In this document: positions 179-24,579 of the stretch, piece after piece | How positions within the stretch are numbered: the first letter of the stretch is position 1 | Layout: each line of letters opens with the position of its first letter | From: an uncultured Acidobacteriota bacterium | GTDB taxonomy: Bacteria; Acidobacteriota; Terriglobia; Acidiferrales; UBA7541 | DNA: 64,000 nt | Direction: 5' to 3' | Assembly: GCA_963789665.1 (NCBI GenBank) | Contig: CAWBLT010000015.1 | Location: forward strand, 34,445 to 98,444 | Notes under the pieces: model-generated | What the model saw: the letters and a program-made list of their open reading frames with translations, nothing else | Told to the model about the DNA's origin: nothing | Databases searched by the model: none | Position numbers and translations under genes: made by a program

Positions 179-2656
179 ATGGGAACGTTGCTCCAGGATC
201 TGCGCTACGGAATCCGCATGTTGGCGAAGAGTCCGGGTTTCACCGCGCTGGCGGTCATCACCCTGGCGCTGGGAATCGGCGCGAACACCGCAATTTTCTC
301 CGTGATCAATTCCGTGGTGCTGCGTCCGTTGCCATTTCACGAACCAGGGCGGCTGGTGGCGCTCTGGGAAACTGAAAGCGCGCCAGGAAATTTCCCGCTG
401 ACCGGGCCCGATTATCTGGACTGGCAAGCGCAGAGTCGTACGCTCGAAGCCAGCAGTCTTTACACTTGGGACCGGACGGCTAACGCCAGCGGCTCCGGCG
501 AACCCCAGGCCGCTTCGGTGATCAGCACCCAGGCGAATTTTTTCGCGGTGCTCGGCGTGCAGCCGCAAATCGGGCGCGCCTTCGATCCCGGCGAAGATCA
601 GGCCGGGAAAAATCATGTGGCGATTCTGAGCAACGCCTTCTGGCAGAGGCAATTCGGCGGACGTTCCGACGTCTTGGGAAAAACCATCGAGTTGAACGAC
701 GAGCCCTACTTCGTTATCGGCGTGCTGCCCGCCTGGTTTAATTTTCAGCACGCGACGGAAATTTGGACGCCCATGGACATGACGCCCAAGGCGCTGGGGC
801 CGCGCGGTTCGCATTCCTATCGCGCGATTGCGAGGCTGCAAGCGAACGTCACCGCGGCACAGGCTCAGGCGGAACTCGCGGGCATCACCAAGCGGTTGGC
901 AAAACAGAATTCGAAAAGTGATGACATCAGCGGAGCCGTGGTCGTCTCTCTGACGGAGCAGCTGACCGGAGCATCCCGGCAAGGCCTTTTCATCCTGCTT
1001 GGCTCCGTGGCGCTGGTGCTGCTGGTGGCCTGCGCCAACGTGGCAAACCTGATGCTGGCGCGCGCCAGCAATCGCCAGCGTGAAATTGCCGTGCGCGCCG
1101 CGATGGGCGCCGGACGATGGCGGTTGGCGCGGCAACTGCTCACCGAAAGCATTTTGCTTTCTCTGCTCGGCGCCGCACTGGGGCTTTTGGGCGCGTTCTG
1201 GGCGGTATCGCTGCTGCAGTCGGCCGAAACCCTGCCAATTCCCCGCGCCAATCCCATCGAGATTGACGTAACGGTTCTGCTATTCACCATCGGCGTCAGT
1301 ATTCTGGTGGGCGCGCTATTTGGTCTGGCGCCCGCGATGCAGTCGTTCCACATGAATCTCAGCGACGAGCTCAAATCCAGCGCGCAAGCCGTGGTCAGCC
1401 CGTCCGGCACTCGCCGCTTGCTGCGCGATGCTCTGGTGGTCGGCGAAATTGCCGCTTCGCTGGCGTTGCTGATCGGCGCGGGCCTGCTGCTGCGCAGCTT
1501 TTCGCGCTTGCGTGATTCTGGAATCGGCGTGCAGACGGGAAACGTGATTACCATGGGCGTCAATCTGCCCGCAGCGAAATACAAGACGCTGCCGGCGCGC
1601 CGCCAGTTTTTTGACCAGCTGATTGAGCGCATTGAGGGCGAGCCGGGCGTGCAGGCAGCGGCGATCTCGACAGAAATTCCGCTGGAAGGAGGCAACAACG
1701 GGTATGTCACCGTGGCGGGGCAGGACAATCCGGCCCTCGCGACACAGCTGGTCGAATGGAACAACGTCACACCGAACTATTTTCGCGCGTATGGCGTGCC
1801 CGTTCTGCAGGGTCGCGTGTTCACGCCCGAAGAAGTAGAACGCACCGCGGTGGTGAATCTGAAAGTGGACGATCTTTATAAGAACGATCCGAACCTGAAA
1901 TCGCTGCCGCCGGATCTGGGATTTGTCGCCGTCATCAGCCGCAAAATGGCGCAATTGTATTGGCCGAAGCAGGACGCGCTGGGCAAAGTGTTTCAGGCGA
2001 GCGGCGTTCCGGTCACCGTCGTCGGCGTGGTTGGCGACGTGAAGGAATGGGACATTCGCGAGAATGTGGTTCCGCAAGCGTATTTCCCGCTCACGGCTGC
2101 TTTGGACAACGAAGGGATCGGCGCGCGATTGACGGTGAGGACGAGCGTGGCACCGCGCGGCGTCCTGACGGCGATTCGTCGAGACCTGCGCGCGCTCGAC
2201 GGCGGCCTGGCCGTGATTCACCCGCGCACCATGGACGAAGTCGTCGCCGATGCCATGCAGGACACCAGCGAGCAAACCATGCTGCTGGGCATTTTTGCCG
2301 CGCTCGCGCTGTTGCTGGCCGCCGTGGGGATTTACGGCGTGATGGCGTACGTGGTCACGCAACGTACGCACGAGATCGGTGTGCGCATGGCGCTGGGCGC
2401 GCAACAGCACGATGTGTTGCGGCTGGTGCTAGGCGAAGGCTCGCGGCTCACCGCCATCGGTGTCGCGCTCGGTCTGGCATGCGCTTTGGCTCTCACCCGA
2501 TTGCTGCGCGCGCTGCTTTTTGGGGTCAGCGCCAGCGATCCACTCACGTTCGCGGGAGTTTCCATCCTGCTCGCGCTGGTCGCAATGGCGGCGTGCTACA
2601 TCCCGGCGCGTCGCGCATCACGCGTGGATCCGATGGTGGCGCTGCGTTACGAGTGA
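179..2656 (+). CDS. ADOP-family MacB-like ABC transporter permease (FtsX domains plus large periplasmic domain)
   Basis: 825-aa ORF. N-terminus [39 protein letters not shown] (TM1), C-terminal FtsX-type TM bundle and the tail [17 protein letters not shown] sits 4-9 nt before the ATG. Confidence 0.93.
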
Positions 2657-2741
2657 CGATGCAGAGAATATCGTCAATATTCTGAACCGGCATCATGGCC
2701 GAAGGTTCTCTGTTTCGCCTAAAGTTTTCCAGGAGCTCAAG

Positions 2742-5186
2742 ATGGAAACCCTGCTGCAAGATATTCGCTACGGCATTCGCATGTTGGCGAAGAATCCCGG
2801 CTTCACGGCGATCGCCATTCTTACGTTGGCTCTGGGCATCGGCGCGAACACGGCAATTTTCTCGGTCGTTAACGCGGAGCTGCTGCGTCCGCTGCCCTTC
2901 CGCGATCCGGGCCAGTTGGTGCGGGTGGCCACTGCCAATGCGCGAATCCACACCGTGAGTGGCGCGGTTTCCTATCCCGATTTCGCGGACTGGCGCGCGC
3001 AAAATCGCGTTTTCCAGGATATGGCTGCGTATGTTGACTCCAGCTTCGCTCTCACCGGCATCGAGCAGCCCGCGCACCTGCAGGCTGCGAGCGTTTCCGC
3101 CGACATGTTCAACTTATTGGGAGTGTCGCCGGAATTGGGACGCGCGTTTTCACCGGACGATGACGAACCGCACCATCACGTTGTGATTCTGAGCCATGGT
3201 TTGTGGAAGGAGCGCTTCGGCGGCGATCCACAGATCATCGGCCGCGTGATCACTCTGGATAACAGCGCGTACACGGTGGTGGGCGTGATGCCCGCCAGCT
3301 TTGAGTATCTGCTGCAGCGCGAAACGCCGGCGCTATGGTCCAGCTTCAGTCCTTTGCGGGAATCTACCACTGATTCGCCGACGATGGCCGATCAGCGCGA
3401 TGCGCATTTCCTGCGCGTGATCGCGCGCATGAAGCCCGGCGTGACGGTGGCGGAGGCGCAAGCCAACCTAGACGTCATCACCACGGCGCTGGCTAAGCAG
3501 TATCCCGACAGCAACAAATATTCCAGCGCGAAGGTAGTTTCCGAGCAGGAAGAATTGACGCACAGCATCCGGCCGGCGCTGTTCCTGATGATGGTGGCGG
3601 TGGGATTTGTGCTGTTGATCGCCTGTGTGAACGTGGCGAATCTGTTGCTGGCGCGGGCCACTGCGCGCACGCGCGAAATCGCCATCCGTTCGGCGCTGGG
3701 CGCAGGACGCCAGCGCGTGATTCGCCAACTTCTCACCGAAAGTTTTCTGCTCGCGTTGGTGGCCGGTGTGCTGGGCCTGCTGCTGGCGATGTGGGGGAGC
3801 GCTGCGCTGGTGCGCTTCAGCCCCGCGAATTTACCGCGGCTCGCTGAAATTCGCGTGGACGGCTGGGTGCTGGCCTTCACCATGGGACTGTCTTTGGCCA
3901 CCGGAGTGTTTTTCGGTCTCGCTCCTGCTCTGCAAGTGTCGCATGGCAATATCGTGGACGCTTTGAAAGAAGGCGCGCTGAGCAGCACCGCGGGGCGCGG
4001 ACGCCATGCACTGCGGAGTTCTCTGGTGATCGTGGAAATGGCGTTGGCGCTGGTGCTGCTGGTGAGCAGCGGACTGCTGATTCGCAGCCTGGTGCATTTG
4101 CAGAACGTGAATCCGGGATTCGATCCGCACAACGTAATGACTTCCAACGTGGATTTGCCGGATGCCAAATATTCGGATGCAAAACGGGCGCAATATTTCA
4201 AGGACCTGATGCGGCAGCTCAAGGCGCTGCCCGGAGTGCAATCCGCCGCCGGCATCTATCCGCTGCCGATGGGCGGTGACGAAATCCGCACCGTTTTTCA
4301 GATTGATGGACATCCCGTGGCCAAAAGCGAGGAGCCGCACACTTCTCTGCGAGACATCACGCCGGATTACTTTGCCACCATGCGGATTCCCATTTTGCAG
4401 GGCCGCGATTTCGGCGCGCAGGATGAACCTGCTTCCACACCGGTCGTCATCATCAACGAGGCATTCGCGCGACAGATTTTCCCTGGTGAAAATCCAATCG
4501 GAAAACACATCAAGCCCGCGGTTGCCGGTGACACAGGCGAGCCGGTGATGCGCGAAATCGTGGGCGTGGTGGGCAACGTGAAGTTTCACGATTTGAGCGA
4601 CGAGTGGGCGCCCGAGTCCTACATCCCCTACGCGCAGATACCCTTCGGGTCTTTGACTCTGGTGGTGCGCACGGCGCAAGACGCCCACAGCCTCGCGAAG
4701 CCCATCGCCGAAACGGTCCGCTCGCTGGATAAAGACCTGCCCACTTACGCGCCGAAGACCGTCGACGAATATCTGAGTGGCACCATCGCACAGCCTCGCT
4801 TCAATACCTATCTGCTGGGAATTTTTGCGGCATTGGCCATGCTGCTCACGGCCGTCGGCCTGTACGGCGTGATTTCGTATTCGGTCGCACAGCGCACGCA
4901 TGAACTCGGCATCCGCATGGCCCTGGGCGGACAGCCGGGAGACATGCTGCGCCTGATTGTGGGCCAAGGTCTGCGTCTCGCGGCGTTTGGAGTCGGCATC
5001 GGTCTGGCCGCTGCCTTTGTGCTGACGCATTTTCTTTCCAGCATGCTCTTTGGCGTTAGCGCCGCCGACCCGATTTCCTACATCGCGGTAGTGGGCTTAC
5101 TCCTAACCGTCGTGATCGTCGCTTGCTTCGTGCCGGCCCGTCGGGCTATGCGTGTGGACCCGATGGTCGCACTTCGCTACGAGTAG
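2742..5186 (+). CDS. ADOP-family MacB-like ABC transporter permease
   Basis: The supplied ORF 2460-5186 overlaps the previous gene. The start is reassigned to ATG 2742 ([21 protein letters not shown]...), preceded by AGGAG at 2731-2735. The C-terminus is [12 protein letters not shown]. Confidence 0.92.
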
Positions 5187-5433
5187 ATCGCCCCCGGGAA
5201 TTATGCAGCCAGCGATGACCAAGAACTGTCGCGGCTTCGAAACTCGTACTGTCCGAAATCGCAACAAGCATTCCCGCAACTGGTCAGGCTCGGCCTCGCG
5301 GCGCGTCTATCGTGGCTTTAATCTATTGTAAGTACAGGCCTTATATTAATATTGGGCTGGAATCCCACCTGCCCATATTCGGGAGGCACCTGATAAGAAA
5401 ACTCTCCGCATCCAGCTGAGCGGGGCTCGAATC

Positions 5434-6651
5434 ATGAACATTATGACGCTCGAATCCACAACCGAAGCCGCTAAGACGCAGCCGCGAGTGCTCATCGCGG
5501 ACGATCAGCCCGACATTCTGGAGGCGCTACGACTGTTGTTAAAAGGACACGGTTACCTCACTGAGGCAGTCACTTCCCCGGCAGCTCTATTCGCCGCCGT
5601 TTCCCAAAATGGATTCGATCTGATATTGATGGACCTTAACTACGCTCGCGATACCACCTCTGGTCGCGAAGGCATTGATTTACTGGCGCGACTGAAAGCC
5701 ACCGAAAACGCGCCTCCGATCGTAGTGATGACCGGTTGGGCCACCGTTGGCCTGGCGGTGGAAGCGATGCAGCAGGGCGTCGGCGACTTCGTCGAGAAGC
5801 CCTGGGTGAATTCCCGGTTGCTCGAAATATTGCAGAAACAGGTGCAGATCGGCCGGGAGCGCCGCGACGCCCGGCAAAAAGCAGTGGCCCACACGATCGC
5901 GCAGACCGAAATTGCCTCGCAGCTTCACGCGCAGGACCGCGAGATCGCCGAAGCGCGCGCGATTCAGCAGGGGTTTCTGCCGAAAGATATTCCTCAATTG
6001 CAGGGATTCGAAATTGCGGGCGCCTGGCAGCCAGCGCGTGTGGTGGGCGGCGATTACTACGACGTGCTTCCATTCGGGCCAGAGACGCTGGGCATATGTA
6101 TCGGCGATGTCGCGGGCAAGGGTATGCCGGCGGCCCTGCTGATGTCTAACTTGCAGGCGGCTTTTCGAGGCTTCGCTTCCCCCGCGCTTGCTCCGGAAGA
6201 TCTGTGCGAGCGCCTGAATGCGCTGATCTGCCGCAATATCGCCACCGACCGCTTCATCACTTTTTTCTACGCGCAATTGGACGGTCCGGGCCGCCGGCTG
6301 CGTTACACCAACGCCGGGCACAATGCGCCAATTGTGTCGCATCGCGATGGCACGCATGATCGCCTGCTAGAAGGCGGCGGGATTCTCGGCGTGTTTCCCA
6401 TACAGGAGTTCTCCAGCGGCACCTACGACCTGGCGTCGGGCGACCGCGTGCTGCTTTTTACCGATGGCGTGACGGAAGCGCACGTTCCGGACGGCGAGGA
6501 ATTCGGCGAAGCCCGCTTGCTCGAGCTGCTCGAACAAAATCGCCATGCGAGCGCGGAAGATTTGCAAAAAATAGTTCTGCAAGCCGCGGGCGAATTTTGC
6601 CGCGGCCATTGGCATGACGACGCCACACTGATCGTCATTGCCGTTGAATAA
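5434..6651 (+). CDS. response regulator receiver domain fused to a PP2C/SpoIIE-type serine phosphatase (RsbU-like)
   Basis: 405 aa. The receiver reads RVLIADDQPDILEALRLLLK...DLILMDLNYARDTTSGREGIDLL...PIVVMTGW. The PP2C part reads VVGGDYYDV...CIGDVAGKGMPAALLMS...LLFTDGVTEA...DDATLIVI. Confidence 0.9.
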   Translation: MNIMTLESTTEAAKTQPRVLIADDQPDILEALRLLLKGHGYLTEAVTSPAALFAAVSQNGFDLILMDLNYARDTTSGREGIDLLARLKATENAPPIVVMTGWATVGLAVEAMQQGVGDFVEKPWVNSRLLEILQKQVQIGRERRDARQKAVAHTIAQTEIASQLHAQDREIAEARAIQQGFLPKDIPQLQGFEIAGAWQPARVVGGDYYDVLPFGPETLGICIGDVAGKGMPAALLMSNLQAAFRGFASPALAPEDLCERLNALICRNIATDRFITFFYAQLDGPGRRLRYTNAGHNAPIVSHRDGTHDRLLEGGGILGVFPIQEFSSGTYDLASGDRVLLFTDGVTEAHVPDGEEFGEARLLELLEQNRHASAEDLQKIVLQAAGEFCRGHWHDDATLIVIAVE

Positions 6652-6676
6652 ACCCGCGAACGAGCGAGGGAGCCGA

Positions 6677-9123
6677 ATGGGATCGCTGGCGCAAGACCTG
6701 AGTTTTGCGGTGCGCACGCTGCGGAAGAATCGCGGCTTCACCGCGGTCGCGGTCTTGACGCTGGCGCTCGGCATTGGCGGAAACGCCACGGTATTCAGCT
6801 GGATTCGCGCCGTGCTCCTGAATCCCCTGCCGGGCGTGGAGCATTCCGAGCAAATGATTTCCGTTGAAACGGTTATGCCCAGTGGCGAATATCACACCAG
6901 TTCGTACCCGGACTATAGGGATTTTCGCGATCAGAACCATGTCTTCTCCTCGCTTATCGGCTTCGAGCTCTCTGGCGTGGACATGAGCCTGCGCAACGAC
7001 GCGCCACCGGAGCGCGTCTGGGGAATCATCGCCACGGAAAATTATTTCGACGCGCTCGGCGTGCACGCCGCCATCGGGCGCACGTTTCATGCCGAGCCAA
7101 ATCAGGCGCTGAATTCGGATCCCTACATTGTCCTCGGCCAGAGTCTGTGGAAACGCCTCTTTGCCTCTGATCCGAAGGTCGTGGGCCGCACCGTGCATAT
7201 TAACGGGCACCCTTTCACGGTGATCGGAGTCGCGCCGCCGCGCTTTTTCGGAACCATCGTGGGCATTGACGCGCAGTACTTTGTTCCGATGATGATGCAG
7301 CCCGAAATACTCCCTTTCGAGGACATCGAGGAGCGCGCGCCGACTTTCGTGCACATCATTGGACGCCTGCGCCCAGGCGTAACGACCGCCCAAGCCCAGT
7401 CGGAATTCACAAGCATCGCCGCACATCTGGCGCAGGAATATCCCAATCCCAATGTCGGCAATGGCGTGGGGATTTACGTGGCGCCAGTATGGAAAGCGCA
7501 CTACGGCGTGCAGGATTTTCTGCGCAGCGTTCTCGGATTCCTGATGATCGTCGCCGTGCTGGTGCTGGTGATTGCCTGCGTCAACGTGGCGAATCTGCTG
7601 CTGGCTCGCGCTTCGGCACGTGAAAAAGAAATGGCGATGCGCGCGGCGCTGGGTGCCAGCCGCGGACGCCTGATTCGCCAGTTGCTCGTCGAAAGCCTGC
7701 TGCTGGCCGCTGCGGGCGGCGCTGGCGGAATCGTTCTGGCGTTGTGGGGCGCGAATCTTCTGAGCTTTTTCCTGCCGCCCGCGCATTTGCCCATCGGTTT
7801 GGAGCGCAGGTTGACGCGCCAGTTTTGATTTTCACGCTGATTCTTTCCGTCGTCACCGGGCTGGTGTTCGGGCTGGTTCCGGCGTGGCAAGCATCGCGGG
7901 CCAATCTGAATGAATCGCTGAAATCACGAACCGCGGCAACCGGCGCAAGCACCAGCAGCCACCGTTTGCGCGATGTTCTGGTGATATCGGAAATGGTGCT
8001 GGCCACGGTGTTGCTGGTTGCCGCCGGGCTTTTGCTGCGTAGCGTAGGCAAGGCGGAGCAAGCTGGCGCAGGCTACAACACGAATCACCTGACCCTCGCA
8101 GCTTTCGACTTGCGAGGCAGCGGCTATTCTGACGATCGCGCGATTGATTATTACGATCGCTTGCTCGAACGAGTGCGCGCTTATCCAGGAGTTGAATCGG
8201 CCAGCCTGGAACGCTTCGTCCCTCTGTGGTTCACGGGCCGCAGCTATTCGACTGCGCGGATCGAAGGCTATACTGCGAAACCCAACGAAGACATGGGCAT
8301 TGATTTGAACATCGTCGGCCCGGATTATTTCCGCACGGTGCAGATTCCGCTCGTTTCCGGCCGGGATTTTTCCGAACAGGATCGCTCCGGCGCGCCCAAA
8401 GTGGTGATCGTCAATCAAAGCATGGCGAATCGCTTCTGGCCCGGCCAGGACGCGACGGGGCATCGCGTGCACATCTGGAGCGATTGGCGCACGGTCGTGG
8501 GCGTGGTGCGCGATATCAAATATCACCGCATGAACGAGCCGCCGGAATCGTTCATCTATCTTCCGGAACTGCAAGCCGATGGAACGGATGCCAATATTTT
8601 GGTGCGCTCGCAATTGCCGCCGGCAACAGTCGTCAGCGACGTTCGAGTTGCAGCGCACTCGCTTGACTCCAAGGTACAGCCGCTCGAGACAGACACTCTC
8701 GACGGCCTGCTGAAGCAATCCATGTTCGCCAACCGCACCGCAGCATCGCTTGCTTCCGTGCTGGGAGTTCTGGGAACGCTGCTTGCGGCGTTGGGAATTT
8801 ACGGCGTGCTTTCGTACAGCGTGAGCCAGCGGATTCGCGAAATCGGCATTCGCATTGCCTTGGGCGCGCAACGAAGTCATGTCCTACGTCTTGTGGTGGG
8901 GCACGGGCTGCGTCTCGCGGTGTTGGGCGCTGGGCTTGGGGTGCTAGCCGCATTAGCAATTACGCGAGGAATGAGCAGTCTGCTGTTCGGAGTGAGCGCC
9001 ACGGATCCGCTTACTCTCGCCATCGTGTTGCTGACGGTCACTGCCGTAGCGACCCTGGCGGCATATATTCCAGCGCGCCGTGCGATGCGCGTGGACCCCA
9101 TGGTCGCGCTGAGATATGAATGA
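6677..9123 (+). pseudogene. ADOP-family permease interrupted by one frameshift near 7801 (pseudogene or sequence error)
   Basis: ORF 6638-7828 (best start ATG 6677, MGSLAQDLSFAVRTLRKNRGF) and ORF 7744-9123 are the N- and C-terminal parts of one permease. The homology path changes frame at ...LPIGL|GAQVDAPVLIFTLILSVVTG... around GG 7801-7802. The tail is [12 protein letters not shown]. Confidence 0.85.
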
Positions 9124-9241
9124 TGCTTATGCCGGCCGAGCGCGGAACGGCAGGTAGGAAGATGTGGTATTGCGTTCGGCTATTGCGACCGGGAACCACG
9201 AAGATGCCAGCCACACATCGCGCGCTTTAGGGAGATGAAAA

Positions 9242-9940
9242 GTGATCAAACTGATTGACGTGGAAAAATTTTACGAATCCGGCGCGGGCAAGACGTGGGT
9301 GCTGCGCCGCATCAACCTGGAAATCCGCGAAGGTGATTTCATCACGGTCATGGGGCCGTCCGGCGCGGGCAAATCCACTTTGATGGGGATCATCGGCATG
9401 CTCGATGGCGCCTGGAAGGGCGAATATCACCTGCTCGATAATCCGGTGCACAAGCTGGATAATCGCCGCCGCGTGGAGCTGCACAAAAAATATATCGGCT
9501 TTGTTTTTCAGCAGTATCACCTGCTCGATAACCTCACCGTCGCCGAGAATCTGGACCTGCCGCTTTCCTATCGCGACATCAAGAAAACCGAGCGCGAAGG
9601 AATGGTGGCGGACGCTCTCGATCGCTTCCAGATTGTCGGCAAGAAAGCGCTCTTCCCCAATCAGCTTTCCGGTGGGCAACAGCAGCTGGTGGCTGTGGCG
9701 CGCGCGGTGATTGGGAAGCCCAAGCTGATCCTGGCCGATGAGCCCACCGGCAGCCTGCACTCCAGCCAGGGAAAAATGATCATGGATATGCTGAAGAAGT
9801 TGAACGATGGCGGCACGACGATCATCCAGGTGACGCACAACAACGAGTGGGCTGCGTATGGCAATCGCATCATTCAACTCGCCGACGGTTGGATCGTGGA
9901 TGGCCAGCCCGTGGCGGGCGGAGCTGCAGCCAGCCGCTAG
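9242..9940 (+). CDS. ABC transporter ATP-binding protein (MacB/LolD/FtsE-like)
   Basis: 232 aa. Walker [11 protein letters not shown]-loop FQQYHLL, signature LSGGQQQ, Walker [10 protein letters not shown]-loop VTHN. GTG start with GGGAG upstream. Confidence 0.93.
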
Positions 9941-9984
9941 CCGCGCGATCGTGCAGCAGTGGCGCAGTGAGCAAGGAGCTCGAG

Positions 9985-12465
9985 TTGCAAAACACCCATT
10001 TCTTCGAAAATTTGCTGCAGGATATACGCTACGCGATTCGCATGTTGCGCCGCAGCCCGGGCTTCACGGCTACGGCGATCGCCGCGCTGGCGCTGGGCAT
10101 CGGCGCGAACACCGCGATTTTCACCGTCGTCAACACCGTGCTGCTGCAACCGCTTGCGTATCCTCAGCCGGATCGCCTGGTGCAGCTGGAACTAAGCAGC
10201 GCTGAAGGAAATGGAAACGTCACTTCGATTCCGAAGTACATGATCTGGCGTGAACAGACGCAGGTGTTTCAGGATGTGGCGGCCTACGATGAAGGCGGCC
10301 CCGGCGTAAATCTCACGGGCGGCGATCGCCCGGAGCAGCTCAAGGGCGTGCATGTCTCCGCCAGCTTTTTCCAGCTGTTCGGCGCGAACATGGCGGCTGG
10401 GCGTGCGTTTTCCGCGGAAGAAGATCGTCCCGGCGGCGCGCGATTGGTGGTGCTCGGCAACGGATTGTGGCGTCGGCGATTCGCGGCGGATCCTGATGTG
10501 GTAGGCAGAAACATCGAACTCGGCGGCGAACCGTACCTGGTCACTGGAGTGCTTGCCGCAACATTTTCTTCCGACCCGCCCTCGGATATTTACTTGCCGC
10601 TGCAGGCCGATCCCAACAGCACGGACCAGGCGCACTACTTGCGCTCCGCGGCGCGACTGAAGCCCGGCGTCACGCTGGCGCAGGCCCAGGCCGCGATGAA
10701 GCTTGCCGCCGAGCAATATAAGCGAAAGTTTCCCGGCGCGATGGGTCCGCAGGACAGCTTCACTGCGGAGCCGCTGCGCGACACGGTGATTGGCGACGTT
10801 CGCAAGTCGCTGCTGATTTTGCTGGGCGCGGTGGGCATGGTGCTGTTGATCGCCTGCGCCAACGTGGCCAATTTGCTGCTGGTGCGCGCCACCATGCGCA
10901 AACGCGAAATCGCCATTCGCGCGGCGATGGGCGCGGGACGCGGACGCATCATCCGGCAACTTCTCACCGAAAGTGTTCTGCTGTCATTGGGTGGCGGCGC
11001 GTTCGGTCTGATTCTAGGTTATTTCGGCGTGCACGCGCTGCTGACGATCAACCCCGGCAACATTCCTCGAATCGGCGAGCAAGGCGCTGCGATCACTCTC
11101 GATTGGCGGGTACTGGTGTTTACTTTGCTCGTCTCGCTTGCCACTGGAATTTTATTTGGGCTGATACCCGCGTTCAGCGCCTCGCACGCCGATCTGAGTC
11201 TTACATTAAAAGAAAGTGGTTCGCGCTCCGGCAGCGGCCTCAGCCAGAATAAGGCGCGCGCGACTCTCATCGTCACCGAAGTGGCCCTCGCCCTCGTGTT
11301 GCTGGTGGGCGCGGCTTTGCTCATTCGCACGTTCGCAGCACTGCGTGGCGTCAATCCCGGGTTCTCCACGGACAAAATTCTCACGATGCAGATGTCCCTG
11401 ACGGGCACGCGCTTTGAAACCTCCGCCGCCGTCAATCAGCTGGTGCGCGATTCGCAGCGCCGTGTGGAAGGCCTGCCCGGCGTTGTTGCTCTGGCCACGA
11501 CGTGCTGCCTTCCACTCGAAGGCGGCTTCGGGCTTCCGTTCATTATCGAAGGGCGTCCGCTGACTGACGGTCCGGCGCACGGCGGAGCCGGCTATCGCCC
11601 GTTGTCTCCGCGTTACTTTCGACGTGTTCAAAATTCCGCTGCTGCGCGGCCGCATGTTTACGGATCACGATGATGGCGGCGCGCAACCCGTCGTCCTGAT
11701 CAACGAAGGGCATGGCCAAGAAATTCTGGCAGAACGCCGAATCCCGTCGGCCAGCGCATCACCATCGGCAAAGGAGTGGGCCCTGAATTCGAAGAGCCGG
11801 CGCGCGAAATCGTTGGAATTGTGGGAGACGTACGAAACGGCGGGCTCGACAGCGATCCCGAACCGATCATGTACATTCCCGTCGCGCAAATGCCCAACGG
11901 GGTGACGGCGCTCAATAACCGCATCATTCCGATTACCTGGATCGTTCGCACCAAGGTCGAGCCATTCTCACTCAGCACTGAAATTCAGGAGGAACTGCGC
12001 ACCGCGAGCGGCGGCTTGCCGGTCTCGCATATTCGCTCCATGGACCAGGTACGTTCGGAATCCACGCAGCGCACCGATTTCAATATGACGCTGCTGGTGA
12101 TTTTCGCCGGCGTGGCGCTGCTGCTGGCCGCCATCGGCATCTACGGCCTGATGGCATACTCCGTGCAGCTGCGCACGCAGGAAATCGGCATTCGCATGGC
12201 GTTGGGCGCGGGCCCGCAAGACGTGCGCAGGATGGTCGTCAAACAGGGCATGCGCCTGGCGTTGCTGGGAGTTTTCCTCGGTGTGGCAGCGGCTCTCGCG
12301 CTCGCGCGACTGATGGCTAGTCTGTTGTATGGCGTGAAGCCCTGGGATCCCGCGGCGATTATCTCGGTTGCAGTGCTGCTCAGCGCCGTGGCGTTGCTCG
12401 CGACGTATTTTCCCGCGCGGCGCGCTTCGCGCGTGGATCCGATGATCGCGTTGCGCTACGAATAG
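9985..12465 (+). pseudogene. ADOP-family permease with three +1 frameshifts within 125 bp (pseudogene or sequence error)
   Basis: Best start is TTG 9985, 6 nt after AAGGAG 9973-9978; GTG 9967 is the alternative. The homology path runs frame 1 to ...SPRYF, frame 2 for DVFKIPLLRGRMFTDHDDGGAQPVVLINE, frame 0 for MAKKFWQNA, then frame 1 again for (D/N)PVGQRITIGKGVGPEFEE... Read straight through, frame 1 hits TGA at 11671-11673. The tail is SRVDPMIALRYE. Confidence 0.8.
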
Positions 12466-12470
12466 GAGCA

Positions 12471-14897
12471 ATGGTGCGAACTTTATTTCAAGATATTCGC
12501 TACGGCCTGCGCATGATGGCGAAAAATCCCGGCTTCACATTTTTCGTCGTTGCCGTGCTGGCGCTGGGCATCGCGGCCAATACCGCTATCTTCAGCATCG
12601 CGGACGCGGTGCTGGTTCGTCCGCTGCCCTATCGCCAAGCCGATCGCCTGGTAATGGTGTGGGAGGACGCCGCTTCCTACGGGTTTCCTCGCGACACGCC
12701 CGCGGCTGGAAATTTCGCCGACTGGAAAGCGCGCAACCAGGTTTTTGACGATATGGCCGCGTCGTCATACAGTGGTTCATTCAACCTCACCGGCGAAGGC
12801 AACCCCGAGGAAATTCCCGGGGATTTCGTCACCGCGAATCTCTTCTCCGTGCTCGGGGCTCGCCCCGCTCTCGGCCGCGACTTCAGCGCCTCCGACGACG
12901 TTCCGGGAGCGCCGCGGGTGGTGATTTTGAGCCAGGGACTTTTCCTGCGCAGGTTTGGCGGCGATCCTCAGATCATCGGCAAGCAGCTGTGGCTCAATTA
13001 CGAAAAGTACGATGTGATCGGCGTGATGCCGCGCGGTTTCCAATTCCCGGACCGCGATCCCCAGCTTTGGGCACCGGTGCAATTTACAACGGCACAATTG
13101 GCGAACCACGGGAATCATCATCTCCAGGTCGTTGCGCGGCTCAAGCCCGGCGTGTCGCTGAAAGTCGCGAACGCAAACCTGGCAGCCATCGCGAAGCAAT
13201 TGGAGGAAGAGTATCCGTCGTCGAACGCCAAAGTCGGCGCCTACGCCGTCCCGCTGCGCGAAGAACTGGCCGGGAAGACGCGTCCTGCGCTGTTCGTCCT
13301 GCTCGGAGCCGTGTGCTTCGTGCTGCTGATCGCCTGCGCCAACGTGGCCAACCTGCTGCTGGCGCGCGCTTCCGGCAGGCGACGCGAAATTGCCATGCGG
13401 CTGACTCTGGGCGCGAGCCGCTGGCGAATTGCGCGGCAGCTTTTAACTGAAAGCCTTTTGCTCGCCGCGCTTGCGGGAGCGGCCGGATTGATCCTCTCGA
13501 CGTTCATAACGCAGCTGCTGGTGAGTTTGATTCCGGGGGGCATCGCGCCGCTGAACGAATTGGGCGCGAATAGCGATGTTCTTGTTGTCACGCTGGTAAT
13601 TACGGTCGTCTCCGGGCTTCTTTTTGGGATTCTTCCGGCGCTCAAGGTGTCGCGGGTCGATCTAGCGACGTCTTTGAATCAAGGCGGACGCAGCGGCATT
13701 GGGTCGGGGCGCCGCTTGCGTGACGTGCTAGTAGTTTCGGAAGTCGCGCTCGCGCTGGTTCTGCTCGCAGGCGCAGCGCTAATGCTCCGAAGCTTCGAAA
13801 AGTTGTCGCATCTCGATCCGGGATTTCGCGCGGATCACGTCCTGGTGGTGCGTACGCCTTTGCCGCGGCAGAAATACGAAGCATTTGCCTCGCGCGCGGC
13901 TTTCTATAGCGACGTCCTCGCGCGCGTCGCACGCTTGCCCGGCGTAACCGCGGCCGGCTACACCACTTGGGTTCCGCTCACCAATTACGGAGGGGCCACG
14001 AGCATCACCGTTGAAGGCCGGCCGCAGCCTGCGCCCGGTCAATTGCCCATTCCGAATTGCCGCATCGTCAGCGATGACTACATTCGCGCGCTGGGCATGA
14101 AGCTGTTTGACGGGCGCGCTTTCGACGAGCGCGACGGCACCGCGGCGCCACCCGTCGCGCTCATTAACCAGACCATGGCCCGAAATCTGTGGCCTGGAGA
14201 GAACGCCATCGGCAGGCGCTTCAAGCGAGGAAGTTTCGACGAGCCTTCGCCGTGGATCACCATCGTGGGAATTGTGGGCGATGTTCACCAGGCAGGCCTT
14301 GATTCCCCAGCTCGGCCCGAGATGTACTTGCCCTACCTGCAACAGGACTTCGGATTTGAGCCTGAATATCTCGTCGTGCGTACGCCCGGAGATCCGATGA
14401 GCATCGCCGACGCGGTGCGCCAGCGGGTCTGGGCCGTGGATAAGGAGCAGCCTGTCGCGGGCGTGATGCCGCTGGAGGAATTGGTGGACGATACGCTCGC
14501 TCCGCGGAAGATACAAACGGGCTTGCTCGGCGGTTTTGCCGTGCTCGCGCTGCTGCTTGCTGCGCTGGGGATCTATGCAGTGTTGTCCTTCACCGTCACC
14601 CAGCGGACCCAGGAATTTGGCGTGCGCATGGCGCTGGGAGCGCAACCCGGCGATGTGCTGCAGATGGTGGTGTCGCAGGGTACCCGGCTTTTTATTTTGG
14701 GCGCCGTCATCGGATTGGCCGGCGCATTCGGGCTTTCGCGCACTCTGGAGCATTTGCTCTTTGGCATCAGCGCAACCGATCCGCTGTCGTTTGCGATGGT
14801 CACTCTGGTTTTGGCGGGCGTGACTTTGCTGGCCTGTTACTTTCCGGCGCGGCGCGCGATGCGCGTGGATCCGATGATCGCGCTGCGGTACGAGTGA
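12471..14897 (+). CDS. ADOP-family MacB-like ABC transporter permease
   Basis: 808 aa. N-terminus LFQDIRYGLRMMAKNPGFTFFVVAVLALGIAANTAIFS, tail MRVDPMIALRYE. It starts 5 nt after the previous stop, with GGAG just upstream. Confidence 0.93.
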   Translation: MVRTLFQDIRYGLRMMAKNPGFTFFVVAVLALGIAANTAIFSIADAVLVRPLPYRQADRLVMVWEDAASYGFPRDTPAAGNFADWKARNQVFDDMAASSYSGSFNLTGEGNPEEIPGDFVTANLFSVLGARPALGRDFSASDDVPGAPRVVILSQGLFLRRFGGDPQIIGKQLWLNYEKYDVIGVMPRGFQFPDRDPQLWAPVQFTTAQLANHGNHHLQVVARLKPGVSLKVANANLAAIAKQLEEEYPSSNAKVGAYAVPLREELAGKTRPALFVLLGAVCFVLLIACANVANLLLARASGRRREIAMRLTLGASRWRIARQLLTESLLLAALAGAAGLILSTFITQLLVSLIPGGIAPLNELGANSDVLVVTLVITVVSGLLFGILPALKVSRVDLATSLNQGGRSGIGSGRRLRDVLVVSEVALALVLLAGAALMLRSFEKLSHLDPGFRADHVLVVRTPLPRQKYEAFASRAAFYSDVLARVARLPGVTAAGYTTWVPLTNYGGATSITVEGRPQPAPGQLPIPNCRIVSDDYIRALGMKLFDGRAFDERDGTAAPPVALINQTMARNLWPGENAIGRRFKRGSFDEPSPWITIVGIVGDVHQAGLDSPARPEMYLPYLQQDFGFEPEYLVVRTPGDPMSIADAVRQRVWAVDKEQPVAGVMPLEELVDDTLAPRKIQTGLLGGFAVLALLLAALGIYAVLSFTVTQRTQEFGVRMALGAQPGDVLQMVVSQGTRLFILGAVIGLAGAFGLSRTLEHLLFGISATDPLSFAMVTLVLAGVTLLACYFPARRAMRVDPMIALRYE

Positions 14898-15028
14898 CCG
14901 GCGCAAACAAAGGGAAGTCCGGGCGACGACACGCGCGGCGCATGGTATGGATTGGCCTGAGAGGTGGACATCAAGTGACGACGCAGTAAAATAGCCTGTC
15001 ACTTGGACGCTTCTTGGGGGCGAAAATT

Positions 15029-17488
15029 ATGGACACACTCTGGCAGGATTTACGTTATGGCGCGCGCATGCTGCGGCGAAACCCAGGTTTCGCGGCCGTT
15101 GCCATTCTGACGCTGGCGATCGGGATCGGGGCGAACATTGTGATTTTCAGCGTGGTCAATGGAATTTTGCTGAAACCGCTGCCGTTTCCGGAATCCCGTC
15201 GCGTCGTCACCATATGGGAGACGGACGCGAACCGCAACCTCACGCGCGGCACCGCTTCGGCCGCGGAATTCCTGGATTGGCGCGACATGAATCACGTTTT
15301 CCAGGAACTGTCGGCCTCCCGCGCGCTGTCTTTCGCGATTACGGGCAGCGGCGATCCCGAACAGGTCTGGGGTTCGCAAGTATCCGGGAATTTCTTTCGC
15401 CTGTTGCGCGTCGCTCCAATAATCGGCCGGGATTTTACGTCCGACGATGAACAGCCCGGTCATGAGCAAGTAGTCCTCTTGGGTTACGGATTGTGGCAGC
15501 GCCGCTATGGGGGTGATGCCGAAATTCTGGGCAAGACGATTCTGCTGGGTGAAAAGCCATTCACCGTGATCGGAGTCTTGCCGCGCAACTTCTCTCTTTA
15601 CGGCACACTGCCGGATTTCGAACTGTGGAAGCCATTCGCATTCGATCGCAGCCAACTCGATCGCGAAGATCACGAACTGGTAATTTTCGCGCGGCTCAAA
15701 GACGGCGTGCTGCTCTCCCAGGCCAACGCCGAAATGATCACCATTCAGGAGCAACTCAAAAAACAGTATCCAGCGTTCGACCAGAAGAATGGAATTCGCG
15801 TGGTCGGTTTCCACGATGAACTCGTCAGCACGCTCCGTCCCGGCCTGCTGCTTCTGCTGGCCGCCGTGGCATTTGTCTTGCTGATCGCTTGCGCGAATGT
15901 GGCGAACCTGATGCTCGCGCGCGCCGCCGTCCGCGAACGTGAAATCGCGCTACGCATTTCTCTGGGCGCGAGGCGGCAGAGAATTTTCCGGCAACTGCTG
16001 ACGGAAAGCGCGCTCCTGTCCCTGATCGGCGCGGCCATCGGTATTTTGTTCGCTTACGGCGGTATCCACATCGTGCGCGATGCCGTCATCTCCGGACAAG
16101 GCACGCGCATTCCTCACCCGGAATGGATTGCCATTGATGCCACGGTGCTGGGGTTCACGGTCCTGGTCGCTCTGGCCACTGGAATACTTTTTGGCTTTGC
16201 GCCGGCAATTCAGATTTCGCGCTCCGCCTTGTTCGAATCGCTGAAGGAAGGAAGCCGCGGCTCGACGGCCGGACGCCACAGCCAGCTGGCGCGTTCCGTG
16301 CTGGTCGTCTCCGAAGTGGCTTTTTCGCTCATGCTGCTGGTGGGAGCAGGCCTGCTGGTGCGCAGCTTCGCGCTGATGTTGGCCGAGCCGTTGGGATTCG
16401 ATCCCGAAAATTTATTGACCGCCCAAATGCTTCTGCCCGATTTGCGCTACGTGGACGGTCCGCGCATCTCGAATTTCTATCAGGCCGTCATAGAACACGT
16501 GAATGCAATCCCGGGCGTGAACTCGGCCAGCGCCGCCAATTTTCTGCCCTTAACCCGCTGGAGCGCGTTTTGCGATTTCGATATCGCCGGCCGCGCGGCT
16601 CCGCCCTCGGGTGAGCATTTCACGGCTCAATACCGCGTCGCGGACTGGCGCTATTTATCCACCATGGATGTTCCGGTGAAGGAAGGCCGCAACTTCACTT
16701 CTGACGACGGGTCCGATTCGCAGGGCGTCGCGCTCGTCAATGAAGCCCTCGCGCGCCGCTATTGGCCCAACGCGGATCCCGTCGGCCAGCAGATCCGCCT
16801 GATCTTTAACGCGACCAGGACTCCTTGGGAGCCCATCCCACGCCAGGGCTGGGTCACAATTGTAGGAGTCGTCGGCGACATCAAGGACTGGGCTTGGTCC
16901 GAACCGAAATCCGGGCAGCTTTATTTGCCGGCAACGCAGAATCCTTCGCGGCTGATGAGCCTGGTGGTGCGCTCTCGCGTGGATCGCGCGCAATTAACCG
17001 CCGCTGTGCGCCACGCCGTCGAAACCGTAGATCCGAATCAGCCCATCACCGATGCGAAGATGATGGAAGACTATCTCGCGGTGGCTTTCTCGCAGCGCCG
17101 TCTGAATATGTCGCTGCTGGCATTTTTCGCGGTGGTGGCCGCGCTGCTCGCAGCCATCGGGATTTATGGAGTGATGGGCTACGCCGTCACGCAGCGCTCG
17201 CACGAAATCGGCATTCGCATGGCCCTGGGCGCCGAACCAGGCGACGTGCTGCGCATGATCGTCGGCGACGGGATGAAACTGGCGTTACTGGGCCTGGTGA
17301 TCGGGATCACGGCTTCGCTGCTGCTGATGAAATATCTGGAGAGCCAGCTTTACGGCGTCAAGGCCCGCGACCCGCTCACCTTCATCGCTGTGGCGGCCGG
17401 ACTGGCGCTGGTGGCGCTGGCCGCCTGCTATTTTCCGGCGCGGCGCGCCACGAAAGTGGATCCATTAGTAGCGTTACGCTACGAGTGA
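15029..17488 (+). CDS. ADOP-family MacB-like ABC transporter permease
   Basis: ATG 15029 (MDTLWQDLRYGARMLRRNPGF) is preferred over TTG 15014. A GGGGG run lies 8 nt upstream. The tail is TKVDPLVALRYE. Confidence 0.92.
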   Translation: MDTLWQDLRYGARMLRRNPGFAAVAILTLAIGIGANIVIFSVVNGILLKPLPFPESRRVVTIWETDANRNLTRGTASAAEFLDWRDMNHVFQELSASRALSFAITGSGDPEQVWGSQVSGNFFRLLRVAPIIGRDFTSDDEQPGHEQVVLLGYGLWQRRYGGDAEILGKTILLGEKPFTVIGVLPRNFSLYGTLPDFELWKPFAFDRSQLDREDHELVIFARLKDGVLLSQANAEMITIQEQLKKQYPAFDQKNGIRVVGFHDELVSTLRPGLLLLLAAVAFVLLIACANVANLMLARAAVREREIALRISLGARRQRIFRQLLTESALLSLIGAAIGILFAYGGIHIVRDAVISGQGTRIPHPEWIAIDATVLGFTVLVALATGILFGFAPAIQISRSALFESLKEGSRGSTAGRHSQLARSVLVVSEVAFSLMLLVGAGLLVRSFALMLAEPLGFDPENLLTAQMLLPDLRYVDGPRISNFYQAVIEHVNAIPGVNSASAANFLPLTRWSAFCDFDIAGRAAPPSGEHFTAQYRVADWRYLSTMDVPVKEGRNFTSDDGSDSQGVALVNEALARRYWPNADPVGQQIRLIFNATRTPWEPIPRQGWVTIVGVVGDIKDWAWSEPKSGQLYLPATQNPSRLMSLVVRSRVDRAQLTAAVRHAVETVDPNQPITDAKMMEDYLAVAFSQRRLNMSLLAFFAVVAALLAAIGIYGVMGYAVTQRSHEIGIRMALGAEPGDVLRMIVGDGMKLALLGLVIGITASLLLMKYLESQLYGVKARDPLTFIAVAAGLALVALAACYFPARRATKVDPLVALRYE

Positions 17489-17497
17489 GGAGGTTGG

Positions 17498-19939: not shown

Positions 19940-19948
19940 GGAAACCAC

Positions 19949-22704: not shown

Positions 22705-22755
22705 AGGCTGTCTTGCGCTGCGCACCCGGACGCAGATTGGCAGAGCGGCAGGGGC

Positions 22756-22794
22756 AAAAAAAAACCGGCGGTTGGATGGCCATCCAACCGCCGG
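22756..22794 (-). terminator. rho-independent terminator between convergent genes
   Basis: Perfect 15-bp palindrome CCGGCGGTTGGATGG/CCATCCAACCGCCGG (22765-22794), flanked by A9 on the + strand (22756-22764). That run is a U9 tract directly after the hairpin on the - strand transcript. Confidence 0.75.
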
Positions 22795-22816
22795 CGTTCA
22801 GAGGAGGAGAACTCGT

Positions 22817-24565: not shown

Positions 24566-24579
24566 CTCCATTCCCCTTT

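Follow-up and report, generated by a model that had tools for sequence, protein, structure and literature searches.

A receiver-PP2C regulator with a predicted sigma-54 promoter and a receiver paralogous to that of an NtrC-type activator in an ADOP pump operon of Acidobacteriota

In an uncultured soil acidobacterium, a receiver-PP2C response regulator (405 aa; 5434-6651, plus strand) heads an operon of ADOP (duplicated MacB/FtsX-type) permeases, and its gene lies behind a predicted palindromic enhancer and -24/-12 promoter, about 110 nt apart, that are conserved across the phylum; this arrangement is what is new here. Positions refer to the window, i.e. the whole 64-kb stretch of DNA analysed, and those prefixed C15 to the contig. 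The operon also encodes a predicted NtrC-type sigma-54 activator (479 aa; 19949-21388, plus strand) with a closely similar receiver, and a histidine kinase (439 aa; 21385-22704, plus strand). The two receivers are ancient paralogs of one large subfamily. The best explanation as a whole, which we consider reasonably probable, is that this subfamily serves a regulatory module of ADOP (MacB-type) pumps in Acidobacteriota, wired as a nested circuit with a shared kinase. The host organism is known from metagenome bins only.

Results

Organization of the pump operon

The ADOP permease pair at 179-5186 (plus strand, Pfam), 5' of the internal promoter, is the tail of an earlier transcription unit that starts outside the 64-kb window. 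The array begins at C15:22145 with an HlyD-type adaptor and a second ATPase, under the same enhancer/promoter design as the PP2C regulator gene. Downstream of this gene (PF00072, PF07228) follow, all on the plus strand, an ADOP permease in two ORFs (6638-7828 and 7744-9123, together 6638-9123; Pfam MacB_PCD and FtsX), the sole ABC ATPase within the window (9242-9940; PF00005), a further permease in two ORFs (9847-11673 and 11776-12465, together 9847-12465; Pfam), three full-length ADOP permeases (12471-14897, 15014-17488 and 17498-19939, together 12471-19939; Pfam), the activator (Pfam) and the kinase (Pfam and sequence), whose start overlaps the activator stop by 4 nt. Each full-length permease contains two MacB_PCD and two FtsX domains, and 15014-17488 scores 984 bits against the ADOP family TIGR03434 (curated cut-off 622). 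The two ADOP genes at 6638-9123 and 9847-12465 appear disrupted; their counterparts in the closest relative, G023, are single ORFs of 828 and 841 aa, respectively. The top NCBIfam matches of the ATPase are MacB, DarD and LolD-type ATPases, and its identity among genus members is 90-99%. The operon probably ends at a hairpin with a 14-bp stem (22764-22795), which follows the kinase gene and separates it from the convergent gene 22817-24583. This is the sole strong terminator-like site in 4800-23200, with a T-run on the minus strand and an A-run 5' of the stem on the plus strand.

The PP2C regulator and the activator

The regulator consists of a receiver (residues ~18-139; Response_reg match 19-133, 73.8 bits), a helical linker (~140-190) and a SpoIIE/PP2C domain (~190-404; PF07228 match 217-404, 173 bits against a cut-off of 25). 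Its catalytic residues are intact. In an alignment of 11 family members sharing 32-49% identity, D207, D225, G228, G230, D344 and G345 are invariant, and D210, D395 and D396 are conserved in at least 90%. The profile match, together with the metal-binding Asp of the GGDxxD, DVxGKG, TDG and DDxT motifs, places the domain among the SpoIIE/RsbU-type PPM/PP2C phosphatases and predicts that it is catalytically intact. A pseudo-receiver or pseudo-phosphatase of the E. coli RssB type was considered and rejected, all catalytic residues being kept.

The homodimer model reached an ipSAE of 0.71, against 0.00 for the best of three controls, with pLDDT of at least 84 and runs agreeing in at least 88% of contacts. 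Among proteins solved as one-chain pairs the ipSAE mark is reached by 20 of 30, against 1 of 23 among those solved as single chains; these counts apply only roughly here, as the model was run on an own alignment. This pass may reflect likeness to a solved dimer, P. aeruginosa RssB (3eq2, 3f7a), which among solved full-length proteins is also the nearest in sequence (E = 7.5e-16, residues 17-349). The modelled interface is formed by alpha4-beta5-alpha5 residues that carry group-specific fixed differences (see below), the linker and PP2C helices. This predicted use of the linker and the PP2C switch helices is as in RsbU and RssB, in which dimer control is linker-mediated (PMC12143880). RssB acts in RpoS control, and the PP2C domain of E. 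coli RssB is truncated and inactive, whereas the domain described here is complete and stands in another biological context.

The activator combines a Response_reg receiver (~33-154) with Sigma54_activat (214 bits), AAA_lid_14 and HTH_8 domains (Pfam), and is 88-99% identical within the genus. Its AAA+ loop reads GAFTDA rather than GAFTGA. Since this variant occurs in all 31 orthologs examined and is unique among the activators of this genome, about 19 in number, it is a lineage signature, which may bear on the contact with sigma-54. The genome also contains rpoN.

Two ancient paralogous receivers

The first-pass annotation had claimed that the two receivers align without gaps and share an unusual DLNYARDTTSG(R/Q)EG block, and had taken this to suggest a duplication. 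The alignment is indeed gapless: BLASTP finds 74 identities over 131 residues (56%), 78% positives and 0 gaps (E = 6e-49). The receivers are each other's best match in the genome; in a tblastn search of all 5.3 Mb, the next-best receivers reach 37% identity when the PP2C receiver is the query and 40% with the NtrC receiver, and they are devoid of the 5-residue insert after the phospho-acceptor Asp. Both are CheY-like, with Response_reg (PF00072) scores of 73.8 and 84.7 bits (cut-off 30.2), the acidic pair, the phospho-acceptor Asp, the Thr/Ser and the Lys; D23, D24, D67, T100 and K122 (PP2C protein numbering) are invariant in 14 + 13 orthologs. They also share the subfamily motifs DDQxDVLEALRLLLK, DLNYxRDTTSGxEG and KPWxN. 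The block common to both turns out to be a subfamily hallmark rather than a feature of the pair, as it is found in 139 of the 149 nearest cluster representatives (clusters at 50% identity). Among these 149 clusters, the outputs that recur are sigma-54 AAA+ (36) and PP2C (28), and no other. Of the solved structures, 2qr3, annotated 'two-component system response regulator', matches both receivers best (E = 8e-21 and 1e-19). Its post-Asp loop is equally long and it has a KPWDN motif, but its identity is low and the loop sequence differs (MNFTSGINNGNEG versus LNYARDTTSGxEG).

The two receivers are paralogs. In the receiver tree, the PP2C receivers form their own clade (100/99) within a joint clade with the NtrC receivers (97/91); the event is thus ancient and not, as a duplication within the locus would be, local. 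Because very long outgroup branches make the root of this tree unreliable, we leave the place of the duplication within the phylum unclaimed. The activator receiver is almost invariant within the genus, and both copies are under purifying selection.

In alpha1, 11 of 13 positions have the same consensus residue in the PP2C and NtrC groups, which differ at one position of the loop after the phospho-Asp. Their group-specific fixed differences cluster at 101-106, 113-117, 121, 125, 131 and 135, on the alpha4-beta5-alpha5 face. They include the beta4-alpha4 loop (GWAT versus AWGS) and position 125 in the beta5-alpha5 loop (V/A/T/S versus E). Both of these loops can contact kinases.

A conserved enhancer and sigma-54 promoter

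An enhancer-like site on the plus strand (5250-5287) is made up of the imperfect palindrome TGTCCGAAATCGCAACA (5250-5266) followed by CATTCCCGCAACTGGTCA (5270-5287) and stands out as a conserved block in an alignment of 14 same-genus upstream regions. The sigma-54-type -24/-12 element TGGAATCCCACCTGCC (GG-N10-GC; 5358-5373, plus strand) is located 61 nt 5' of the ATG of the PP2C regulator, with TGG and CTGC invariant in 14 same-genus genomes. Promoter and enhancer are conserved well beyond the genus: distant loci have TGGCAC-N5-TTG(T/A) or TGGCAC-N5-GTGC at the same position, and in 17 loci across the phylum a related palindrome precedes the -24/-12 element by 107-112 nt. Here the spacing is 108 nt, and the GG-N10-GC element with its upstream palindrome is a predicted sigma-54 promoter with enhancer. 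The -12 element, CTGCC, is non-canonical, and the PP2C promoter was revealed only by phylogenetic footprinting. It predicts a transcript start near 5384.

The enhancer, the second box and the promoter are specific only when combined at fixed distances from one another. Three such composites occur in the 5.3-Mb genome, all before pump-module genes; the other two precede the start of the pump array and a distal ADOP permease. When the genome was searched loosely for the enhancer by itself, 1832 matches came back, mostly noise and some of them from a dispersed repeat, TGTCCGGTAACGCGAC, and TGGCAC-N5-TTGCW with 2 mismatches matched 39 times in the 64-kb window against 38 expected. These elements bear on the branched pathway that had been suggested from the two outputs. 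That picture calls for revision: since the PP2C regulator gene sits behind a conserved predicted sigma-54 promoter/enhancer, the activator arm most likely also drives transcription of the phosphatase arm, which would make the circuit a nested one.

Distribution of the module

The gene module is conserved. The order PP2C regulator, ADOP permeases, ATPase, ADOP permeases, activator, kinase recurs in all 11 same-genus loci read. Orthologs of the PP2C regulator are present in 14 of 24 genus genomes, 13 of which also have the kinase; the other 10 genomes contain neither. The PP2C regulator is present in roughly 600 genomes, and receiver-PP2C proteins of its type are found in Terriglobia, Blastocatellia and Vicinamibacteria. 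Loci of the Vicinamibacterales type have the kinase-activator pair in divergent orientation to the PP2C regulator-ADOP pair, with a gap of 260-370 bp. In many genomes, the PP2C regulator is unlinked to the kinase and stands alone in variable gene contexts. All 10 of the distant genomes of this kind that were tested have exactly one kinase ortholog, against a background frequency of the system of about 36% in the phylum sample (54 of 151 genomes). Within an even phylum sample, in which up to 28 candidates were scored for each genome, a second subfamily receiver showed up in only 3 of the 54 genomes that have an activator-type receiver; this rarity and the frequent unlinked copies indicate that the PP2C arm is an optional add-on.

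The kinase and its likely partners

The kinase is composed of two predicted membrane helices, a HAMP-like segment, a weak PAS match, a DHp domain (H at GHELNNSL) and HATPase_c. Its hydrophobic stretches, at ~8-30 and ~40-58 as read directly from the protein sequence, are separated by a loop of about 9 residues, which makes it a candidate intramembrane-sensing (BceS-like) kinase. One of the 61 HATPase_c matches of the genome falls within the window, at C15:56828-57142 in this kinase, in line with the earlier statement that the cluster has a single kinase. DHp helix 1 is almost invariant among 16 kinase orthologs, and a search of the genome for DHp paralogs found no other kinase above 31% identity (over 71 of 85 query residues).

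The first-pass annotation had also proposed that this kinase phosphorylates both receivers, and had suggested co-evolution analysis of alpha1 as a check. This yields a small excess of within-genome identity (68% versus 61%, permutation p ~0.02), a weak signal drawn from 8 non-independent lineages. Because alpha1 is conserved subfamily-wide, its identity in the pair does not single out kinase 21385-22704. Synteny, co-occurrence, the paralog-free DHp domain and the conserved alpha1 make it plausible that one kinase serves both receivers; with about 60 kinases and about 19 sigma-54 activators in the genome, another donor or activator may be involved.

Context of the phosphatase

A partner-switching-like role had been proposed for the phosphatase arm, along with the remark that the window shows no STAS partner and that a genome search might supply candidates. 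The remark is accurate, and the search does retrieve 12 STAS matches (PF01740, PF13466), every one of them outside the window. The proposed role finds no backing in the gene context: neither in the window nor among the relatives' neighbours examined does a STAS or anti-sigma kinase gene adjoin the PP2C regulator, and no RsbV-type STAS antagonist with an RsbW-type kinase, as in a partner-switching module, is linked to it. It is possible that the phosphatase is aimed at a distant STAS protein. Where the neighbours of stand-alone PP2C regulators were examined, there was no adjoining kinase gene and no STAS or HATPase gene; they encode hydrolases, a dehydrogenase, a glyoxalase, an AraC regulator and DUF3037. 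The substrate as a conserved neighbour was considered and rejected, these genes being unrelated and varying by locus.

Discussion

We propose that the membrane kinase 21385-22704, which has almost no extracytoplasmic loop, would phosphorylate the activator 19949-21388. The activator would bind the palindromic enhancer and switch on the sigma-54 promoters of three units, namely the pump array, the distal ADOP gene and the operon led by the PP2C regulator. The newly made PP2C regulator, with the same subfamily alpha1 and the same post-Asp loop, would then be phosphorylated by the same kinase. Phosphorylation of its receiver may raise or lower PP2C activity through the dimer, i.e. through the alpha4-beta5 face, the linker and the PP2C switch helices, towards a presumed phospho-Ser/Thr substrate. 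The PP2C regulator would probably also drain phosphoryl groups from the activator, and the circuit, rather than simply forking, would nest feed-forward and feedback in one loop. Taken as a whole, this nested circuit with a shared kinase and an induced PP2C regulator is the explanation we favour, with fair rather than high confidence.

A more specific version makes the PP2C regulator a post-translational arm, induced through sigma-54 and charged by the same sensor-less kinase, which would dephosphorylate a part of the ADOP pump (permease, ATPase or adaptor) or an unlinked STAS-type switch; we offer it tentatively and think it rather unlikely. Alternatively, a different donor encoded elsewhere (histidine kinase, hybrid kinase or Hpt relay) could phosphorylate the PP2C regulator, the likeness of the receivers reflecting common descent only. 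Hpt relays are the donors of known receiver-PP2C proteins such as HsbR, and a donor of this kind would fit the ~60 HATPase_c proteins of the genome, the many stand-alone regulators in variable contexts and the fixed differences in the beta4-alpha4 and beta5-alpha5 loops. We nevertheless judge it improbable: no second kinase with a similar DHp domain exists in the genome, one kinase ortholog accompanies the unlinked regulator in 10 of 10 genomes tested against a background of ~36%, the genes of the PP2C regulator and the kinase are gained and lost together in the genus, and no kinase gene adjoins the stand-alone copies whose neighbours were examined.

The PP2C regulator could also be mainly an inducible phosphate sink, or competitor, which shuts the activator off while its phosphatase output is unimportant. 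Sink receivers are established in other branched systems, for example among CheY paralogs; the regulator shares the kinase-facing alpha1 helix, and its gene comes first after a promoter that would belong to the regulon of the activator itself. A mere sink, however, has no need of a PP2C domain, as single-domain receivers do this elsewhere, and the domain is strongly constrained, with its catalytic Asp and Gly invariant or nearly so at 32-49% identity; a pure sink thus seems quite unlikely to us. Lastly, the array is full of paralogous ADOP genes, two of them apparently disrupted, and the receivers could resemble each other merely through local duplication or gene conversion in a repetitive array, with no regulatory meaning. 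We consider this very improbable, and a recent local duplication was rejected outright: the receivers fall into two distinct, old clades, they occur as a pair in three classes of the phylum under differing gene orders, and both copies are under purifying selection.

The nested circuit that we favour has parallels in several known systems. RsbK-RsbY of Bacillus cereus and RsfS-RsfR of Mycobacterium smegmatis, in each of which a histidine kinase feeds the response regulator, have the same receiver plus PP2C/SpoIIE architecture with intact catalytic residues, and RsfS phosphorylates the receiver-PP2C protein RsfR, which changes phosphatase activity (PMC10950880). Both pairs are encoded beside STAS/anti-sigma partners and control a sigma factor (sigma-B and SigF), whereas the PP2C regulator described here heads an ADOP pump operon with a predicted sigma-54 promoter and no linked STAS/anti-sigma gene, and its presumed kinase is shared with a sigma-54 activator having a paralogous receiver. 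The proposed branching, in which one kinase would feed two receivers with different outputs, one of them a possible phosphate sink, is like that from CheA to CheY and CheB; unlike in CheA branching, one branch here would probably control transcription of the other. As in the transporter-coupled sensing of BceRS-BceAB, the kinase is encoded together with a type VII (FtsX/MacB-like) ABC system and has two predicted membrane helices with about 9 residues between them, but the output here is a sigma-54 activator instead of an OmpR-type regulator, and a PP2C regulator is added.

Receiver-PP2C regulators, branched two-component systems and sigma-54 activators are all known already; what is new is their wiring and context. 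ADOP permeases are among the largest uncharacterised protein families of soil Acidobacteria, and a full-text literature search on ADOP in Acidobacteria and on sigma-54 with MacB in Acidobacteria returned nothing relevant to the module. In several lineages, a standard sigma-54 two-component pump switch has gained a second regulator with a sister receiver and a phosphatase output, apparently induced by the switch itself. The proposal amounts to a concrete circuit of one kinase, two paralogous receivers, a defined enhancer/promoter and a defined dimer face, and offers a natural case in which paralogous receivers would keep a common kinase-docking helix while the output face diverges. If the PP2C regulator does act as a post-translational arm, pump activity or a stress sigma factor would be coupled directly to export load, and this would be a control of ABC exporters of a kind not described so far, conserved in three classes of Acidobacteriota.

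An old receiver pair with two outputs

The receiver of the receiver-PP2C response regulator (405 aa, 5434-6651, plus strand; hereafter the PP2C regulator) and that of the NtrC-type sigma-54 activator (479 aa, 19949-21388, plus strand) align over 131 residues with no gaps and 56% identity (E = 6e-49). They are mutual best matches within the genome; the next receivers reach only 37-40% and do not have the five-residue insert that follows the phospho-acceptor Asp. The twin receivers described in the first-pass annotation are therefore real. Its two counts for this cluster also hold: there is one kinase (HATPase_c domains, 1 in the window and 61 in the genome), and no STAS partner lies in the window (STAS domains, 0 in the window and 12 elsewhere in the genome).

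The shared DLNYARDTTSG(R/Q)EG block had been considered unusual; it is not private to this pair. With the activator receiver as query, 1.84 billion cluster representatives yielded 382 clusters at E <= 1e-30. Among the best 149 of these, many of which are fragments, 139 carry a D(L/M)NYxRDTTSGxEG-type motif, and the only recurring recognisable outputs are sigma-54 AAA+ (n = 36) and PP2C (n = 28). A solved receiver, 2qr3, has a loop of equal length and a KPWDN motif. The block thus marks a subfamily of receivers that habitually have one of two outputs. This subfamily also has the alpha1 helix, DDQxDVLEALRLLLK, in common.

The two receivers were also proposed to have arisen by duplication, and the phylogeny agrees. 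Maximum-likelihood analysis groups the genus's 14 PP2C receivers in one clade (support 100/99) and sets PP2C and activator receivers jointly apart from the other receivers of the genome (97/91); the root of this tree is unsafe because of long outgroup branches. Receiver-PP2C proteins of the subfamily are found in Terriglobia (Acidoferrales, Bryobacterales, Solibacteraceae, Sulfotelmatobacter), Blastocatellia and Vicinamibacteria, a spread that makes the duplication an old one.

Organization of the pump locus

The source assembly is of metagenome type (5.3 Mb, 33 contigs), the window being taken from its contig C15 (34445-98444), and close relatives of the window proteins are labeled Candidatus Acidoferrum, Acidiferrales or Acidobacteriota. 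A single co-directional block occupies 179-22704 on the plus strand. It opens with two duplicated MacB/FtsX-type (ADOP) permeases, followed by a 247-nt gap and the PP2C regulator gene. Five further ADOP permease genes on the same strand separate the latter from the activator, and the histidine kinase gene (439 aa, 21385-22704, plus strand) starts so as to overlap the activator stop. Two of these five permease genes are each split into two ORFs (6638-9123, 396 + 459 aa; 9847-12465, 608 + 229 aa), with one ABC ATPase gene (9242-9940, plus strand) between them; their counterparts in G023, the closest relative, are uninterrupted (828 and 841 aa, one ORF each), and the split genes are either pseudogenes by frameshift or assembly errors. 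Within 4800-23200, the sole strong hairpin follows the kinase gene (22764-22795). Convergent with that gene, a minus-strand gene (22817-24583) encodes a 588-aa protein without a match in Pfam or NCBIfam, and a gene for a TonB_C protein (24580-25641) comes next. The 588-aa protein is kept at the same position in several relatives read (78-95% identity), and in two of them the TonB protein was seen next to it. The array itself starts outside the window at C15:22145, 12 kb before it, with an HlyD-type adaptor (427 aa), a second ABC ATPase and four more ADOP permeases; counted from there, the whole pump unit spans ~35 kb.

The order PP2C regulator, ADOP permeases, ATPase, ADOP permeases, activator, kinase is found in 11/11 genus genomes with the locus read, with differing permease numbers between the module genes. 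Within the genus, identity is lower for the PP2C regulator (62-92%) than for the activator (88-99%) or the kinase (81-97%). The PP2C regulator is present in 14 of the 24 genus genomes, 13 of which also have the kinase (13 and 12 without the unpublished genome G002), and 10/24 have neither; in the one exception, G007, the gene lies on a contig of 3.9 kb. Loci of the Vicinamibacterales type have a kinase-activator pair and a PP2C regulator-ADOP pair that diverge across 260-370 bp, and many other genomes carry the PP2C regulator as an isolated gene with unrelated neighbours. Exactly one kinase ortholog (47-67% identity) was found in each of the ten genomes with a stand-alone PP2C regulator that were tested. 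Thus, in the genomes tested, the PP2C regulator is present only where the kinase-activator core is present. Of 151 genomes sampled evenly over the phylum, 54 (including the unpublished G068, G093 and G191) have the activator-type receiver, and only 3 of these 54 showed a second subfamily receiver among the at most 28 candidates scored per genome, so that the PP2C regulator is an optional extra to a kinase-activator core that is itself widespread.

A recurrent sigma-54-type promoter

Alignment of the 14 genus regions upstream of the PP2C regulator reveals two conserved islands in otherwise free sequence: TGTCCGAAATCGC(G/A)ACA then CATTCCCGCAACTGG (5250-5287), and TGGAATCCCACCTGCCCATAT, with exact GG-N10-GC spacing (5358-5378). 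Across the phylum, 17 loci, including PP2C regulator genes unlinked to the kinase, have a TGTCCG-N4/5-CGNGACA-type palindrome 107-112 nt upstream of a TGG-N9-TGC element; more distant loci have TGGCAC-N5-TTG(T/A) or TGGCAC-N5-GTGC with GTCGCG...CGCGAC palindromes upstream. The full composite of palindromic enhancer, second box and -24/-12 promoter at fixed spacing occurs at only three sites of the source genome, which contains rpoN: C15:22145, before the adaptor-ATPase-ADOP array; C15:39694, before the PP2C regulator; and C15:683228 (683228-685995; TGGCATCCCACCTGCC), before a solitary ADOP permease gene at a distance of 640 kb. These data point to the PP2C regulator as a member of the pump's sigma-54 regulon, and the third site suggests that scattered "orphan" ADOP permeases share it. 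From the linkage and the divergent arrangement, we infer that the neighbouring activator, one of ~19 sigma-54 activators in the genome, binds the enhancer before the PP2C regulator.

The sigma-54 contact loop of the activator reads GAFTDA (20708-20725, residues ~254-259), as in 31/31 orthologs examined across the phylum; it is unique among the 15 activator loops found in the genome, the others being GAFTGA, GSFTGA or GAYTGA. GAFTDA is accompanied by -12 elements that are non-canonical (CTGCC, TTGT) in the promoters assigned to this activator. Separately, CGGCGGGTCTTTTGCT at 127-142, 37 nt before the permease gene at 179, has 9/12 matches to the sigma-54 consensus and GG-N10-GC spacing, with no enhancer of the three-site type. 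A 16-17-mer, TGTCCGGTAACGCGAC(T/C/G), present in ~10 copies over the contigs (e.g. C1:8531, C10:3747, C12:47981, C20:208358, C23:18941), may be a piece of a dispersed repeat; it gave rise to false matches in the enhancer search.

Receiver surfaces and the kinase

Numbered as in the PP2C regulator (phospho-acceptor D67), alpha1 (residues 26-38) has a consensus residue common to both receiver groups at 11/13 positions, and the two groups differ only at position 78 of the loop that follows the Asp (68-80). Fixed group-specific differences cluster at 101-106, 113-117, 121, 125, 131 and 135, on the alpha4-beta5-alpha5 face. The predicted homodimer interface of the PP2C regulator involves residues 103-121, the linker (157-181) and PP2C helices (230-247, 264-270), with an ipSAE of 0.71 vs 0.00 for the best of three controls, contact agreement between runs of at least 88% and pLDDT of at least 84. 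The ipSAE mark is reached by 20/30 proteins solved as one-chain pairs and 1/23 solved as single chains, counts that are approximate because our own alignment was used; since a similar dimer has been solved for P. aeruginosa RssB (3eq2/3f7a), the pass may reflect this likeness rather than evidence for the PP2C regulator. The receiver pattern is consistent with retention of the helix that docks the kinase and divergence of the output face.

On the kinase side, DHp helix 1 hardly varies among 16 orthologs; with the DHp as query, the genome's other kinases are at most 31% identical over the portion that aligns (71/85 residues). Alpha1 identity between the two receivers is higher within than between genomes (68% vs 61%, permutation p ~0.02), a weak signal from 8 non-independent lineages; outside alpha1 there is no such excess (54% vs 53%, 8 lineages). 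Kinase residues 1-60 (21385-21570) comprise two hydrophobic helices joined, as judged by eye, by only ~9 residues, so this kinase would be without an extracytoplasmic sensor domain. BceS senses through its transporter, and by analogy the kinase may sense through the pump.

The phosphatase arm

Across family members that share only 32-49% identity, the metal-binding Asp and flanking Gly residues of the PP2C domain show little or no variation, and the enzyme should thus be active. To our knowledge, receiver-PP2C regulators of known function target STAS antagonists. No STAS-like or RsbW-like gene is linked to the PP2C regulator in the window or among the relatives' neighbours examined; the genome encodes 12 STAS proteins and ~15 SpoIIE-type proteins. 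Whereas the PP2C domain of E. coli RssB is truncated (PMC12143880), the metal-site residues are kept here. RsfR becomes less active as a phosphatase when phosphorylated (PMC10950880).

Based on this context, one kinase serving both receivers, as proposed in the first-pass annotation, is the most economical wiring. The branched pathway put forward there would be modified in one respect, the phosphatase arm probably lying downstream of the transcriptional arm besides standing beside it. All parts are of known kinds and their combination is an undescribed variant, in which the receiver pair represents an old, recurrent two-output subfamily tied to ADOP pumps.
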